From NCBI RefSeq assembly GCF_044647545.1, contig NZ_CP172818.1: a DNA stretch of 64,000 nucleotides. The stretch is one strand, 5' to 3'. Source of the DNA: Escherichia coli (lineage in GTDB: Bacteria > Pseudomonadota > Gammaproteobacteria > Enterobacterales > Enterobacteriaceae). Below are positions 16,142 to 50,797 of the stretch, in pieces. Position 1 is the stretch's first letter, and each line of letters begins with the position of its first letter. The notes beneath the pieces were generated by a model. It searched no databases and was not told where the DNA came from. It saw only the letters and a program-made list of their open reading frames with translations. A program made the translations under genes and the position numbers.

Positions 16142-16530
16142 TTCAATGATAATCCTGATTTAAACGCCTATACGGTACGATCATCCCCTCGCCCCTTCGT
16201 GGAGAGGATTAGTGATACAAGCCAGCCAGAGACCAGGCAACGACATGCACATAACCACCTGAAACTACATCTCTTCAGGAGCAAACAATTTCATACCAAC
16301 TCATAACCCCAGCATATAAATCCAGTTGGTAACTTTTATTTAACCTGAAACCAGTTTTATCCACTATTTATAAAATTATGTGAAGCATTTCATAGAAGAA
16401 AAATCACTGGCCTAAACATTATCCCCTTTTTGCCTGGTTTTTGACCATTTCCGCGATTTGTTACACATTGAAATATCACTTTTGCTGTGCGTAATATGGC
16501 TATTCGTTAGCCAAAAAATAAGAAAAGATT

Positions 16531-17853
16531 ATGCAAGCAACAGCCACAACACTCGACCACGAGCAAGAATACACGCCGATCAACTCGCGTAATAAAGTCC
16601 TTGTCGCCTCTCTCATTGGCACGGCCATTGAGTTCTTCGACTTTTACATTTACGCCACTGCGGCCGTTATTGTGTTTCCGCATATCTTCTTCCCGCAGGG
16701 CGATCCAACGGCAGCAACGCTACAGTCGCTCGCCACCTTCGCCATCGCCTTCGTCGCGCGCCCCATTGGCTCTGCCGTTTTTGGTCATTTTGGCGATCGC
16801 GTTGGGCGTAAAGCGACGCTGGTCGCCTCGTTGCTAACGATGGGGATTTCGACCGTGGTGATTGGTCTGCTGCCGGGCTATGCCACGATTGGTATTTTCG
16901 CCCCGCTGCTGCTGGCACTGGCTCGATTTGGTCAGGGTCTGGGCTTAGGCGGCGAATGGGGCGGAGCGGCGCTGCTGGCGACTGAAAACGCCCCACCGCG
17001 CAAACGTGCACTGTATGGCTCCTTCCCGCAACTGGGCGCACCGATTGGCTTCTTCTTTGCCAATGGCACTTTCTTGCTGCTTTCCTGGCTACTGACCGAC
17101 GAGCAGTTTATGAGCTGGGGCTGGCGTGTGCCATTTATCTTCTCGGCGGTGCTGGTCATTATCGGTCTGTATGTTCGCGTGTCGCTGCATGAGTCGCCGG
17201 TGTTTGAGAAAGTCGCTAAAGCGAAAAAACAGGTGAAGATCCCGCTGGGTACGCTGCTGACCAAACATGTTCGCGTAACCGTACTGGGTACGTTCATTAT
17301 GCTGGCAACCTATACGCTGTTTTACATCATGACGGTCTACTCTATGACCTTTAGTACCGCCGCCGCGCCAGTTGGGCTTGGCCTGCCGCGTAACGAAGTG
17401 TTGTGGATGCTGATGATGGCAGTGATTGGTTTTGGCGTGATGGTGCCAGTCGCCGGATTACTGGCTGATGCCTTTGGTCGCCGTAAAAGCATGGTAATCA
17501 TCACCACGCTGATCATCCTGTTCGCGCTGTTCGCCTTTAACCCGTTGCTCGGTTCTGGCAACCCGATTCTGGTTTTTGCCTTCCTGCTGCTGGGGTTAAG
17601 TCTGATGGGGCTGACCTTCGGTCCGATGGGCGCGCTGTTACCAGAGCTGTTCCCGACAGAAGTGCGTTACACCGGAGCATCGTTCTCTTACAACGTAGCG
17701 TCGATTCTCGGGGCTTCCGTTGCGCCGTATATCGCAGCCTGGTTGCAGACTAACTACGGGTTAGGTGCGGTGGGGTTATATCTGGCGGCGATGGCTGGCT
17801 TGACGTTAATCGCCCTGCTGCTGACCCATGAGACGCGACATCAGTCGTTGTAA
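16531..17853 (+). CDS. yhjE: MFS transporter YhjE (metabolite:H+ symporter family), 440 aa
   Basis: 12-TM MFS protein with the GRKATLVASLL motif region; 440 aa. Confidence 0.9.
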   Translation: MQATATTLDHEQEYTPINSRNKVLVASLIGTAIEFFDFYIYATAAVIVFPHIFFPQGDPTAATLQSLATFAIAFVARPIGSAVFGHFGDRVGRKATLVASLLTMGISTVVIGLLPGYATIGIFAPLLLALARFGQGLGLGGEWGGAALLATENAPPRKRALYGSFPQLGAPIGFFFANGTFLLLSWLLTDEQFMSWGWRVPFIFSAVLVIIGLYVRVSLHESPVFEKVAKAKKQVKIPLGTLLTKHVRVTVLGTFIMLATYTLFYIMTVYSMTFSTAAAPVGLGLPRNEVLWMLMMAVIGFGVMVPVAGLLADAFGRRKSMVIITTLIILFALFAFNPLLGSGNPILVFAFLLLGLSLMGLTFGPMGALLPELFPTEVRYTGASFSYNVASILGASVAPYIAAWLQTNYGLGAVGLYLAAMAGLTLIALLLTHETRHQSL

Positions 17854-17865
17854 TAAGAGTGAAAA

Positions 17866-17959
17866 GCCTGATGCGCTACGCTTATCAGGCCAGAATTTCC
17901 ATACAATATATTGAATTAGCAAGGATTTGTAAGCCGGAGGCGTTCACGCCGCATCCGGC
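17866..17959. repeat. REP elements (BIME-like pair) downstream of yhjE
   Basis: gcctgatgcgctacgcttatcaggcc (17866-17891) and gccggaggcgttcacgccgcatccggc (17933-17959) match the REP palindromic unit consensus. Confidence 0.75.
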
Positions 17960-18000
17960 ATGAACAAAGCACACTTTGCCAACAATCTAAATCTGTTTAA

Positions 18001-18025
18001 TTGCCGGATGTCAGACATCCGGCAA
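18001..18025. terminator. Perfect 12-bp-stem hairpin after the convergent yhjE and yhjG
   Basis: ttgccggatgtc-a-gacatccggcaa lies 7 bp beyond the yhjG stop; a likely terminator or REP-derived hairpin. Confidence 0.55.
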
Positions 18026-18031
18026 TTATCA

Positions 18032-20092
18032 TCACTTCTTCATCTGCGACAAAATTGTCCTGCACTGATTAGCCTCCCCTTCGGAAGGTGAGATCAGCGC
18101 CAGTAACGCCGCCGCCGGTGTTACCAGCGTTGCCAGTGCCGCCGCAACGGCTCCGCGAGCAATCAACGGCCCGGCTTTCACCCCAGCCTGCGGATTTTTA
18201 AACGTCCCACGTACATACAGCGGCGAACGCAATGTGATAATCCGAATCCCTTTACTCTCCGGATCAATAGTCAAATCCAGCTGTTCCGAAGCAAAACTTG
18301 CCGTACCGGTAACGTTAATCAACGCGTTCTCAGTATCGAAAGCAAAAATCTGCGGGCGCGCCACGCCGTTGGCAATATCCAGATTCGCCGCCGCACAGTT
18401 CACCCGCACCTCATCATCACCAAATATCGCACCGACAATGTAGTTACCGACATTCAGCCCGACAATCTCCATCAGGTTGCGGCTCACCAGCCCGTCATTC
18501 ATCAGCAGTTTCAGGTTGCCGTTACTGTTGCCTAAAAGCGCCGCCACCGAGTTACCGCTACCGCGTAGTTCCGCGTCACCGTTCATTTCCCCCAGCGTCT
18601 TCTGCATCAGTTCCACATCGGGCATCAGTTCTTTCAGTTTCAGTCGACGAGCCTGAATATCTGCCCGCCCTTGCATCGGTTTTTTATCACCTTCCAGATG
18701 AATATTCGCCGCAATGCTGCCGCCCGCCATGCCAAATTTCAGCGGTTGCAGGCGCAGGTCAGCATTTTTGAGGATGATATGAGTAGAAAGATCGCTAATC
18801 GGCAGGCTACTGCCATGCTCAATGCGCCGCCCTTTGAAGCGAACATCGGCATCCATAACGTCCCATTTATCGGTTTCGAAGCGGTCATAAGGCAGCACTT
18901 TGCCCGCAGGCTGAACGCTTTTTTCACCCTTCTTCTGTTCAGACCGTGTCGACTTTTCAGCTCCTTTCCCGGAATCAACGCCAATCAACGGTCCCAGGTC
19001 CGCCAGCCGCAATTGCCGCGACTCGACATCACCTTCCAGTTTTGGTCGTGGCTTGCCGGTGGTGTAGACCAGAGAACCGTGGATATCGCTATCGCCAATG
19101 CGCCCATTAAAGCCGCGATAATCAAAGACCGACGATTTTTCAGTGTCGATTTTCGCTACCAGCCGACCATCCGTTTCAAACGGCGGGGTATCGGGCAGCA
19201 GAACGCCCGTCAGTTCATAGAGAGCACCCAGCGAATCGCCAGAAAATTTAAGCCGTAAATCGACACCCCCCATCTTCATTGGGTCATTCACAACGCCATC
19301 AAAAGCAACACGGGTGTTACCAGAGCGGAAATCAGCCTGTACCGGAAACGGCGTCCCTTCGCCACGCAGCGCCAGCATACCGCCTATTTTTCCCGTACCC
19401 GTGAGCGGTTCACCGTTATAACGTCCCTGCGCCTTCAGGCCAAAAACGTAATCGCCCACCTTTTCTTTATCCGCTTTACCTTTCGATCCAGTAACTTCGC
19501 TGAACGGCAGCGGCTTGCCTAACGGATCAACAAAAATCTCCAGATCCGCTTTGCTTACTTTGTCATCAATCGCGATCCGCCCTTGATCGAACAGAATATT
19601 ATCCAGCCGAAACGACCACGCCGACGGCTTTGCATTCGCGTCTTTGTTGTCATCGCTGGCAAGATTAAACGTCCAGTTATTGTTCTTTTCGGAGAGGCGA
19701 ATCAGGCGCGCGTCGGGCTTTTCGAGCTTGATCCACGGCAACCAGACCGTTTTGGTCAGCAGCGCCAGCGGGGCCAGCGTCGCTTCTACTCGCGGCAAAT
19801 GCACCATTGTGACTTCGGGAATATCCGGTGGATTGCCAAGAATGATGTCTTCCGCGTGTACATGGGGCCACGGCACCCAGCTGCGCCAGCCAGTTTCTTG
19901 CTTTTGCCGCTCCCACACCACGCCCAGATCGCCACGGATAGCGAACGGACGATTCAACTCCGCAGAGACTTTCTGGTTGATGGTCGGTTTGAGTCGATTC
20001 CAGTCAAAAGTTGCAATCAAAATGATCGCCACGACAATCAACAACAAGAAAGCCCCTGAAATCGCAGCGGTTATTTTGCCTGCCTTGCTCAT
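18032..20092 (-). CDS. yhjG: AsmA-family outer-membrane biogenesis protein YhjG (686 aa)
   Basis: ORF 18032..20107 trimmed to the ATG at 20090-20092 (MSKAGKITAAISGAFLLLIVVA), with N-terminal TM anchor and large periplasmic domain. Confidence 0.88.
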   Translation of the reverse strand: MSKAGKITAAISGAFLLLIVVAIILIATFDWNRLKPTINQKVSAELNRPFAIRGDLGVVWERQKQETGWRSWVPWPHVHAEDIILGNPPDIPEVTMVHLPRVEATLAPLALLTKTVWLPWIKLEKPDARLIRLSEKNNNWTFNLASDDNKDANAKPSAWSFRLDNILFDQGRIAIDDKVSKADLEIFVDPLGKPLPFSEVTGSKGKADKEKVGDYVFGLKAQGRYNGEPLTGTGKIGGMLALRGEGTPFPVQADFRSGNTRVAFDGVVNDPMKMGGVDLRLKFSGDSLGALYELTGVLLPDTPPFETDGRLVAKIDTEKSSVFDYRGFNGRIGDSDIHGSLVYTTGKPRPKLEGDVESRQLRLADLGPLIGVDSGKGAEKSTRSEQKKGEKSVQPAGKVLPYDRFETDKWDVMDADVRFKGRRIEHGSSLPISDLSTHIILKNADLRLQPLKFGMAGGSIAANIHLEGDKKPMQGRADIQARRLKLKELMPDVELMQKTLGEMNGDAELRGSGNSVAALLGNSNGNLKLLMNDGLVSRNLMEIVGLNVGNYIVGAIFGDDEVRVNCAAANLDIANGVARPQIFAFDTENALINVTGTASFASEQLDLTIDPESKGIRIITLRSPLYVRGTFKNPQAGVKAGPLIARGAVAAALATLVTPAAALLALISPSEGEANQCRTILSQMKK

Positions 20093-49287: not shown

Positions 49288-49860
49288 TATTCTGCTCCAA
49301 TTGTGATGTTTGTTGTTTTAACCCTTTGCAGTGGGTTGTCGCCGCCTGACCTTTTTTGTTTTTTGCCCGGTCGGGTCAACGTTATGAGGTGGGGATGCCG
49401 TACTAATTAACATCAGTGTAACAGTGCGGATCCTCCAGAAAATGCCCCTCGTGACCTACAATCTGTCAACAGAATGTGAAAACGTCAATACAGCCAACCG
49501 GGATTTACACCAACGGTGAGAATCAACAAACAAAGATTAAAAAAACTTCAAACAGCTATTTGCAGCAGAGAAATTTGTGCTACGCCAACACAACCAGAAC
49601 AATCAGCTTAATATTTAGCAACATTTGGTGATTAAGTTTTATGCATTTAATGAAAAAAATCTGAGGTAAAGGTGGATATCTGAGCGATTAATACCATGAA
49701 CGCTAAAACGCACAGGGGAAAATGCCAGCGCCAGCCATAAGTAACGCAAAAAAAGATTTAAGCAAATATAAAAAAAGACAATGGTTTCTGTCACAAATCC
49801 GTTAATGGATAGTGAGATATGGGGCGCAAATTTGGCAGGGAAATGTGTGGTGTGTAGATC

Positions 49861-49937
49861 GGATAAGGCGGTCGCGCCGCATCCGACAATGGGCCGGTAC
49901 ATTTGCCTGATGCGACGCTGACGCGCCTTATCAGGCC
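49861..49937. repeat. REP/BIME cluster upstream of dppA
   Basis: ggataaggcggtcgcgccgcatccgac and gcctgatgcgacgctgacgcgccttatcaggcc are REP-type palindromic units. Confidence 0.7.
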
Positions 49938-50149
49938 TGCATCGAGTCGAACCTCCTTGTCCCCCGATAAGACCGGTATTTCAATCACCACATGAGACTT
50001 CAGACGCATACAAGCTCTGCATCAATTAGCATGCTAATTTCGCCTTTGCAGTGACAGCTGATATACACGTGCTTCTGGCCAGCCCTGCGGCCTTTAACAG
50101 GTCAGACTGGCAGTGTCCGCACCTCAGGTTCTGGATGACTTTCGCTTTT

Positions 50150-50690: not shown

Positions 50691-50697
50691 GGCGCGT

Positions 50698-50727
50698 CTT
50701 ATCAGGCCTACGTCGAATCGAACCTCC
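50698..50727. repeat. 30-bp REP-like direct repeat, 27/30 identical to 49927-49956, bracketing the anomalous block
   Basis: cttatcaggcctacgtcgaatcgaacctcc versus cttatcaggcctgcatcgagtcgaacctcc at 49927-49956. Confidence 0.6.
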
Positions 50728-50765: not shown

Positions 50766-50797
50766 CAAAAAAGCCTGCTCGTTGAGCAGGCTTTTCG
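50766..50797 (-). terminator. proK rho-independent terminator
   Basis: Hairpin gcctgctc-gttg-agcaggc immediately 3' of the tRNA on the minus strand, followed by a short T-run on that strand. Confidence 0.65.

Follow-up and report, generated by a model that had tools for sequence, protein, structure and literature searches.

The window analysed here, a stretch of DNA 64 kb long, comes from Escherichia coli, the 701 bases around the feature under study being 100% identical to those of strain FDAARGOS_497 and 96% identical to those of K-12 MG1655. Two genes converge at this locus. The first, yhjE, codes for an MFS transporter and occupies positions 16531..17853 of the + strand, ending in a TAA stop codon at 17851-17853 (according to both the list of open reading frames and the RefSeq annotation of the 100%-identical strain). 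The second, yhjG, codes for a protein of the AsmA family and occupies 18032-20092 of the - strand (RefSeq annotation); its stop codon, at 18032-18034, is the first of a tandem pair, TGA TGA, that is evident at 18029..18034 from sequence and annotation. The gap separating the two genes (17854-18031, 178 bp) consists, from left to right, of a 12-nt spacer, a Y-type REP, an AT-rich linker of 37 nt, the tetranucleotide GTAA followed by a Z-type REP, a 30-nt flank, 7 further nucleotides and a palindrome. An earlier sequence-only reading had described this convergent gap as filled by two REP units and a strong hairpin, and all three are present where it had placed them.

Compared with shuffled sequence, the entire gap folds far more stably, whichever strand is taken (z ~ -5.7). 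A scan of the gap for promoters and terminators returned nothing above chance, and a scan of the gap against Rfam returned no curated RNA family, the matches being limited to sub-threshold ones of ES036 (to the L linker) and naRNA4 (to a REP), along with noise in the form of miRNA and snoRNA models on the palindrome. Small open reading frames in the gap were considered as genes and rejected, as they are only frames of 21-43 amino acids crossing the repeats. Longer YhjE variants (453 and 461 amino acids) were likewise considered as products of read-through into the REP and turned out to be internal in-frame duplications. The content of the yhjE/yhjG gap is made up of ordinary intergenic elements and does not represent a new system. 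REPs, BIME-1/RIP elements and 3' stem-loops have long been known in E. coli intergenic regions, and in this respect the locus matters little; what the present analysis adds is the separation of the REPs from an older hairpin, a correction of the terminator label attached to them, and a count of the alleles of the locus in 5,426 genomes.

The BIME-1/RIP element downstream of yhjE

BIME-1 elements are single units in which one Y and one Z1 REP stand in inverse orientation on either side of a long, well-conserved linker (L), frequently with an IHF site in it (Ton-Hoang et al. 2012). In the yhjE/yhjG gap, the Y-type unit (GCCTGATGCGCTACGCTTATCAGGCC, 17866..17891, - strand) starts 12 nt past the yhjE stop codon and is recognised by its inverted-repeat arms, its RNA fold (-13.4/-14.6 kcal/mol) and its alignment to the Y REP of another BIME-1. 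The end on which GTAG is expected points toward the linker, but TTCT stands in place of GTAG (TTCA in K-12), and none of the strains sampled has GTAG in its Y REP, whereas the Y REP of the other BIME-1 copy with which it aligns does have CTAC. The linker itself (17892..17928, 37 nt) was assigned to the L type from an Rfam match and an IHF pattern scan. It covers all 43 positions (1-43) of the model RF02751 (ES036), the consensus of which amounts to the L linker plus GTAGGCC, with a score of 26.5 bits (E = 0.002) that lies under the gathering score of 37.6. Within it, ATTCAATATATTG (17904-17916, - strand) agrees with the IHF consensus WATCAANNNNTTR at 12 of 13 positions; this consensus with one mismatch is expected about once per kb by chance, so the site is weak evidence when taken alone.

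The second REP unit (17929..17960, + strand) is of the Z type, as indicated by the REP head pattern, by strain alignments and by a match to naRNA4. Its body, GCCGGAGGCGTTCACGCCGCATCCGGCA, lies at 17933-17960 with GTAA before it, matches the REP head pattern exactly and also fits the REP portion of Rfam naRNA4; it was assigned to Z1 rather than Z2 because it accompanies an L linker. When aligned with the copies of K-12 and nine other strains, this unit proves to be decayed in the window, GTAG having become GTAA and a 3-bp deletion (ATA) having eliminated the bulge of the stem, while K-12 has an intact GTAGGCCGGATAAGGCGTTCACGCCGCATCCGGCA at this position and K-12-type alleles keep both GTAG and the ATA bulge. 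To the right of the Z REP lies a flank of 30 nt (TGAACAAAGCACACTTTGCCAACAAT, 17961..17990) that forms a small hairpin and is kept in an independent BIME-1 copy located between yddM and fdnI. That copy aligns over both REPs and over the 30-nt right flank, and since the flank is included in the alignment, the repeated unit is taken to run from 17866 to about 17990.

The two REPs are thus inverted relative to each other, each with its GTAG side turned toward the linker, and form one non-tandem unit. Both show, in arms, folds, pattern and alignment, the imperfect palindrome (30-40 nt) that is typical of Y and Z REPs, with GTAG itself absent from either in the window. REPs without GTAG are decayed members of the family and not non-members. 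Judged by its sequence features, the assembly of REP, linker, REP and flank is one BIME-1/RIP unit. What had been described as a REP cluster therefore does contain two REPs, but these form a single BIME-1 together with the linker and flank, and the palindrome is separate from it. The element resembles the BIME-1/RIP/RIB (repetitive IHF-binding palindromic element) family in having Y and Z REPs inverted around an L linker with an IHF-like site, as well as in being a single unit of a dispersed family with an extragenic position at the 3' ends of genes. It differs in that its Y REP has no GTAG and its Z REP, in the window, has GTAA and no 3-nt bulge, and in that its IHF site is a predicted one. 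A 701-bp query spanning the element finds a median of 7 places per genome at megablast stringency. Further REPs occur elsewhere in the window.

This feature is already known from the literature, as Darling et al. (2010) took the same locus as an example. The K-12 copy, at exactly the same locus, was called a RIP element with a 'REPt' terminator, and the hypervariability of the locus and the replacement of the RIP element in some strains were already reported (Darling 2010). We found no definition of 'REPt', and look-ups in RepRanger, TERMITe, Nanopore and IHF ChIP data yielded nothing on the yhjE/yhjG locus.

The copy present in the window is decaying and probably immobile. Binding and cleavage by the REP-associated transposase TnpA-REP need both GTAG, a tetranucleotide conserved 5' of the stem foot, and the mismatch in the stem (Ton-Hoang et al. 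2012); in the window neither REP has GTAG, and the Z REP has lost the stem bulge as well. As to its origin, the element is most economically seen as an insertion, within the E. coli lineage, into the stretch separating the end of yhjE from the hairpin, and its local effects are likely to be generic ones, in the form of stem-loops added to the 3' UTR of yhjE and, if the predicted site is functional, a linker to which IHF might bind. The short distance between the first REP and the yhjE stop codon could also dampen yhjE translation. According to Liang, Rudd & Deutscher (2015), as summarised in PMC12306157, translation is reduced by REPs that lie no more than 15 nt from a stop codon. With 12 nt for the Y REP relative to yhjE and 3 nt for the palindrome relative to the yhjG stops, both structures fall within that distance, but the palindrome is no REP, and a lowered synthesis of YhjE or YhjG would be a prediction.

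The single-copy palindrome and the age of the hairpin

The palindrome, TAATTGCCGGATGTC-A-GACATCCGGCAATTA, covers 31 nt (17998..18028), with perfect 15-bp arms on both sides of one central base, and starts 3 nt past the tandem TGA TGA stops of yhjG. It had been described as a 25-nt palindrome with a 12-bp stem, which is real at 18001-18025 and understates its true extent by leaving out the ends of the 15-nt arms. It is the longest perfect inverted repeat of the 64-kb window, and arms of 15 nt were reached in 0 of 100 first-order Markov simulations. As RNA, either strand forms a stem of 14 bp closed by a loop of 3 nt, with folding energies of -20.9 and -21.1 kcal/mol (z-scores of -6.8 and -5.3, respectively).

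We considered the palindrome as a dispersed repeat and rejected this possibility, as it occurs in a single copy per genome. In the window, no second copy is present at up to 3 mismatches (0 expected). The 61-mer around the hairpin has a median of 1 place per genome and is found in 3,613/5,426 genomes, 2,775 of which carry it unchanged. When the exact 21-nt core was sought in species-representative genomes, it was found in three: once in E. coli, and in Erwinia and Actinoplanes, where the matches are due to chance. With the Z REPs, the palindrome shares only the 9-nt motif CATCCGGCA/TGCCGGATG. Being single-copy, having a perfect stem and lacking GTAG in either flank, it does not qualify as a REP and stands apart from the REP cluster.

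The yhjE/yhjG gaps of Salmonella, Kosakonia and Klebsiella are much shorter (39, 38 and 37 bp respectively), and in each of them the only such structure is a single GC-rich hairpin of -20 to -24 kcal/mol, which is not followed by a U-tract; REPs are absent. The Salmonella stem, GCGCCGGATG-GCGT-CATCCGGCGC, is a recognisable homologue of the E. coli stem, while the stems of Klebsiella and Kosakonia are unrelated to it in sequence. A 40-bp gap with the hairpin only is also found within E. coli, the type strain ATCC 11775 being among the carriers of this allele. Because the outgroup gaps and the short E. coli allele hold the hairpin without the BIME-1, the hairpin is the older of the two, and comparison of the gaps shows that the most economical history is one that starts from an ancestral hairpin, beside which the BIME-1 was inserted later.

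In an alignment of only four sequences, from E. coli and Salmonella, three stem pairs differ at both of their positions, one of these double changes being from T:A to C:G within E. coli, in strain SCPM-O-B-8794; such compensatory changes have to be read with the caveat that palindromes can also correct themselves through templated (strand-switch) mutation, in which case RNA structure need not be under selection. What has been kept between genera is the position and the structure of the hairpin and not its sequence, which suggests a role for the folded strand rather than for a sequence bound by a protein.

Transcript ends around the hairpin

The sequence-only reading had proposed that the palindrome and the REPs act as a bidirectional terminator. 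Were this terminator an intrinsic (Rho-independent) one serving both genes, U-rich tracts of 7-8 nt would be expected past the stem. The palindrome has the GC-rich stem-loop of such terminators but is followed by UCAUCACU on the + strand, with 3 U among 8 positions, and by AACAGAUU on the - strand, with 2 among 8, neither of which is a U-tract, and it has no flanking A/T tracts. Its similarity to a canonical bidirectional intrinsic terminator is thus limited to a symmetric GC-rich hairpin between convergent genes, and to a 21-nt core that is the same as that of an Erwinia hairpin. In contrast, two true bidirectional terminators with a stem of this kind do have such tracts: the one at positions 50769-50795 of the window has an A-tract before and a T-tract after its stem, and so does the one in the convergent gap of Erwinia that holds the identical 21-nt core.

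RNA 3' ends mapped in K-12 bear directly on this question. Term-seq places a + strand 3' end at K-12 position 3676288, in M63 medium, with 753 reads (Adams 2021, PMC7815308, supplementary file 1). This read count is modest, and the other two growth conditions gave no curated end here. The 61-mer surrounding it is identical in K-12 and in the window, where the equivalent position is 18030 (+), 2 nt past the base of the stem. The sequence-only reading had staked its proposal on 3' ends being found at this position, and on the + strand there is one. For the - strand, the list has no 3' end anywhere in 36758xx-36762xx, an interval that includes the palindrome and REP unit 1 (Adams 2021, PMC7815308), an absence that may merely reflect low expression of yhjG.

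The same data set does contain a Rho-termination region on the - strand, with its peak at K-12 position 3675920, inside and antisense to yhjE (Adams 2021, PMC7815308, supplementary file 2). The approximate equivalent of this peak in the window is 17665 (-), and it is there that yhjG read-through is stopped. Coverage across the region goes from 56 to 20 reads without the Rho inhibitor bicyclomycin (BCM) and from 101 to 111 with it, yielding a Rho score of 3.08 (p = 9e-5), although these read counts (20-111) are small (Adams 2021, PMC7815308). As BCM restores coverage of the - strand, yhjG transcription must largely pass both the hairpin and the REPs before being stopped by Rho, and this Rho-dependent stop contradicts an efficient intrinsic terminator in the - direction. 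No Rho region is reported for the + strand (Adams 2021, PMC7815308). Past the hairpin, the + strand RNA has more C than G (C/G of 1.5-1.9 over 400 nt), as expected for a Rho loading region.

We therefore consider a bidirectional intrinsic terminator for both genes to be unlikely. The strength and symmetry of a hairpin located between convergent genes would agree with it, as would the + strand 3' end so close to the stem, the hairpin of REP unit 1 being followed on the - strand by UUUUCACU (5 U in 8), and the EcoGene-derived wording 'REPt transcription terminator' used for the RIP element (Darling 2010). These points have to be set against the want of a U-tract or of A/T tracts at the palindrome, unlike at 50769-50795 and in the Erwinia gap, against the empty terminator scan of the gap, against coverage under BCM (101 to 111) that leaves little room for factor-independent termination across the gap, and against the lists of Adams 2021, which have no - strand 3' end at either the palindrome or REP unit 1. 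What is supported of the proposal is the + strand 3' end at 18030; a bidirectional terminator in the intrinsic sense is not supported. Even this + strand end is not placed as it would be in an intrinsic terminator, where 3' ends normally lie several nucleotides into the U-tract and not 2 nt past the stem.

Another kind of bidirectional terminator is reported not to depend on a U-tract or on Rho. By Ju et al. (2019) and in the preprint by Wang et al. (2022), E. coli hairpins that lie where two genes converge, and that lack the appearance of intrinsic terminators, are described as pausing polymerases from both sides, with termination following from head-on and then rear-end collisions. The yhjE/yhjG hairpin shares with this class its location between convergent genes and its lack of intrinsic features, and its presence in an ancestral gap of ~38 bp, a few nucleotides away from both stop codons in four genera, agrees with such a function. 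The class is, however, said in those sources to be Rho-independent, yet read-through on the - strand is Rho-sensitive here, and high expression of both genes is reportedly needed, whereas the read counts at this locus are low. Nor do the lists of Adams 2021 contain overlapping 3' ends on both strands, the only mapped end being that of the + strand. For these reasons a collision-type terminator also seems improbable as the main function of the hairpin.

A different role is suggested by the work of Dar & Sorek (2018), in which Rho-dependent transcripts end just past stable stem-loops devoid of U-tracts, to which they have been trimmed back by PNPase and RNase II, REPs often serving as such stem-loops. 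The palindrome has several features in common with these protective structures: there is no U-tract after it and no A-tract upstream, the 3' end lies directly past the stem, the RNA beyond it is rich in C and poor in G, and, on the opposite strand, Rho stops transcription at a more distant point. It differs from them in serving two convergent genes, and in that the dependence of its + strand end on Rho and exonucleases is a predicted one. The best reading of the palindrome is consequently that of a 3'-end-protecting or pause hairpin and not that of a bidirectional intrinsic terminator. The mRNA-stabilising role that had been suggested along with the terminator fits the findings of Dar & Sorek (2018).

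As a 3'-end-protecting or pause hairpin, the palindrome could work as follows. Since its sequence is palindromic, the mRNAs of yhjE and yhjG would both fold the same stem of 14 pairs (~ -21 kcal/mol). For want of a U-tract, this hairpin alone would most likely not release RNA polymerase, and transcription would run on past it until stopped by Rho, as seen on the - strand and, we infer, on the + strand as well. Exonucleases working in the 3' to 5' direction would next shorten the RNA as far as the hairpin, and the hairpin would set and protect the steady-state 3' end. The hairpin may also pause polymerases and thereby favour the collision of converging polymerases at the boundary between the two genes. 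The + strand 3' end might alternatively reflect a weak intrinsic or collision-driven termination event at the hairpin.

Taken as a whole, an account in which a shared, 3'-end-protecting hairpin stands beside a later BIME-1/RIP insertion seems likely to us. A more specific proposal is that the functional core of the gap is the single-copy hairpin and not the REPs, in other words that an ancient stem-loop without a U-tract, sitting in a gap of ~38 bp and kept in structure but not in sequence across the Enterobacteriaceae, acts as a shared 3'-end or pause/collision element of both mRNAs. This we put forward as a tentative and rather doubtful extension of that account.

Structural alleles among E. 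coli genomes

To the history of the gap can be added its present variability, which we surveyed in 5,426 complete E. coli genomes. Three structural alleles emerge: 1) the BIME-1 with the hairpin, in a gap of 178 or 181 bp, is carried by 3,595 genomes (~66%), 763 of which are near-identical to the window; 2) an unrelated GC-rich palindromic repeat, in a gap of 233 bp, replaces both BIME-1 and hairpin in 1,602 genomes (~30%); 3) the hairpin alone, in a gap of 40 bp, is found in ~180-215 genomes (~3-4%). The 3-bp deletion in the Z REP is a character of the 763 window-type genomes. Two matches of partial coverage were considered as insertion alleles and rejected, as they have an ordinary 178-bp gap and owe their low coverage to a megablast artefact. 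No IS was seen in the gap, with a leftover beyond the three alleles of at most ~1% of the 5,426 genomes (roughly 13-50 genomes), this being an indirect bound.

The sequence-only reading had also noted that sites of this kind are known targets for IS insertion and recombination. The locus is indeed a hotspot of repeat turnover, as attested by the report of Darling (2010) and by the three structural alleles, but no IS was found at the site. This bears on the possibility that the gap plays its role at the DNA level, the palindrome being a dimer operator, a cruciform or a recombination site and the BIME-1 an IHF site of the nucleoid or a target for IS or transposases. A perfect 31-bp palindrome has the shape of a dimer site, IHF sites are frequent in BIME-1 linkers, REPs are documented as IS targets, and the locus is structurally polymorphic. 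We nevertheless regard a DNA-level role as very improbable, since the hairpin stays in place and remains equally stable from genus to genus when its sequence does not persist (the stems of Klebsiella and Kosakonia being unrelated), since the region where the 3' ends of two genes meet holds no promoter in need of regulation, and since both REPs of the window lack GTAG, one lacks the bulge as well, and no IS allele was seen among the genomes surveyed apart from the ~1% or less left over.

As about 30% of the genomes have replaced both, neither the BIME-1 nor the hairpin is indispensable. For the BIME-1, this raises the question of whether it has any local function or is neutral DNA, either selfish or relic, an interpretation that would be compatible with the hairpin acting as a 3'-end-protecting element. 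The decay of its REPs (loss of GTAG, and the 3-bp deletion in 763 genomes), its absence or replacement in about a third of the genomes, and the location of the curated 3' end at the old hairpin and not at the REPs would all be accounted for in this way. On the other hand, a REP 12 nt from a stop codon is within the range in which REPs are reported to affect translation, and REP stem-loops generally stabilise upstream mRNA (Dar & Sorek 2018). Neutrality of the BIME-1 is thus a possibility worth retaining, though not the one we would favour.

If the single-copy hairpin is indeed the functional core of the gap, the three alleles would amount to a natural experiment on how shared hairpins and inserted repeats influence the expression of convergent genes. 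They could also be used as natural, isogenic-like variants in tests of REP or hairpin effects on such genes. The repeat that replaces the BIME-1 and the hairpin is itself strongly folded (-93 and -103 kcal/mol over 241 nt). Since it is also structured, a stable 3' structure is present in every one of the alleles. This GC-rich replacement repeat may resemble the 'Box C' family of E. coli.

Alternative alleles of the yhjE-yhjG gap

The 178-bp gap between the convergent yhjE and yhjG genes is replaced in 1,602 of the 5,426 complete E. coli genomes by a 233-bp allele, as seen in E. coli STEC367 (positions 755-987 of locus L003) and likewise in O104:H4 2011C-3493. This allele stands in place of both the BIME-1 and the hairpin, which are gone, and consists of ~61-bp units in tandem, with GC-rich palindromes (CCCTCTCCCTGAAAGGGAGAGGG) and inverted ends of 35 nt. 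The GC-rich repeat is a dispersed one, found at a median of 6 places per genome, and is probably similar to the 'Box C' family. A decayed half-copy of the same type of repeat (TCCCCTCGCCCCTTCGTGGAGAGGATTAGTGATAC) lies at window positions 16182-16215, in the yhjD-yhjE gap. A repeat element on this side of yhjE was reported by Darling (2010).

A second allele, limited to the hairpin in a gap of 40 bp, occurs in E. coli FDAARGOS_1300 (752-791 of locus L004), and the type strain ATCC 11775 is 100% identical to it. Its flanks are only ~91% identical to those of other E. coli, and its hairpin carries two mismatches in the outer stem (TAACTG...CAACTA). The hairpin-only allele has the appearance of an old haplotype that persists in ~3-4% of genomes.

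Variation in the flanking genes and their annotation

In the cattle isolate E. coli F1 E4, an A-to-T change at the equivalent of window position 18031 (TCATCA to TCTTCA) removes the second of the tandem TGA stop codons of yhjG and leaves the hairpin unchanged. A version of the 61-mer surrounding the hairpin that differs by 1 mismatch, at some position within it, is found in O157:H7 strains too. In two E. coli YhjE variants, P0004 (461 aa) and P0009 (453 aa), internal segments of the transporter, 21 and 13 residues long, respectively, are duplicated in tandem and in frame; the variants are not extended at the C terminus into the REP sequence. The PGAP annotation of E. coli UTME-7 includes a 'hypothetical protein' pseudogene with a frameshift that spans the last part of yhjE and the REP region (242-363 of locus L011); this is probably a spurious call on repeat sequence.

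BIME-1 and REP sequences at other sites

A further BIME-1 was found in the yddM-fdnI gap of E. coli KE48 (1440-1700 of locus L015), between two near-identical terminator hairpins with A-tract and T-tract (AAAAAAATGGCRCC...GCGCCATTT). This arrangement resembles a duplication of the target terminator upon BIME-1 insertion. The record carrying it, the 385-kb 'plasmid unnamed1', is a plasmid by label, yet contains chromosomal genes (adhP, fdnHI). Within the window, a BIME-2-like pair of Z and Y REPs with a short linker is located at 49854-49940, and a lone REP half (CTTATCAGGCCTAC) at 50695-50711.

Bidirectional intrinsic terminators

The window also contains a textbook bidirectional intrinsic terminator (AAAAGCCTGCTCGTTGAGCAGGCTTTT, 50769-50795), with a 12-bp stem and A and T tracts, which ranks second by length among the window's perfect inverted repeats. 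The canonical form of such terminators is illustrated by a site in Erwinia sp. 198 (754-774 of locus L007), where a 21-nt core identical to that of the yhjE/yhjG hairpin is flanked by A5 and T7 tracts, with a pckA-like gene on one side and a convergent gene on the other. The match between the Erwinia core and that of the yhjE/yhjG hairpin is due to chance.
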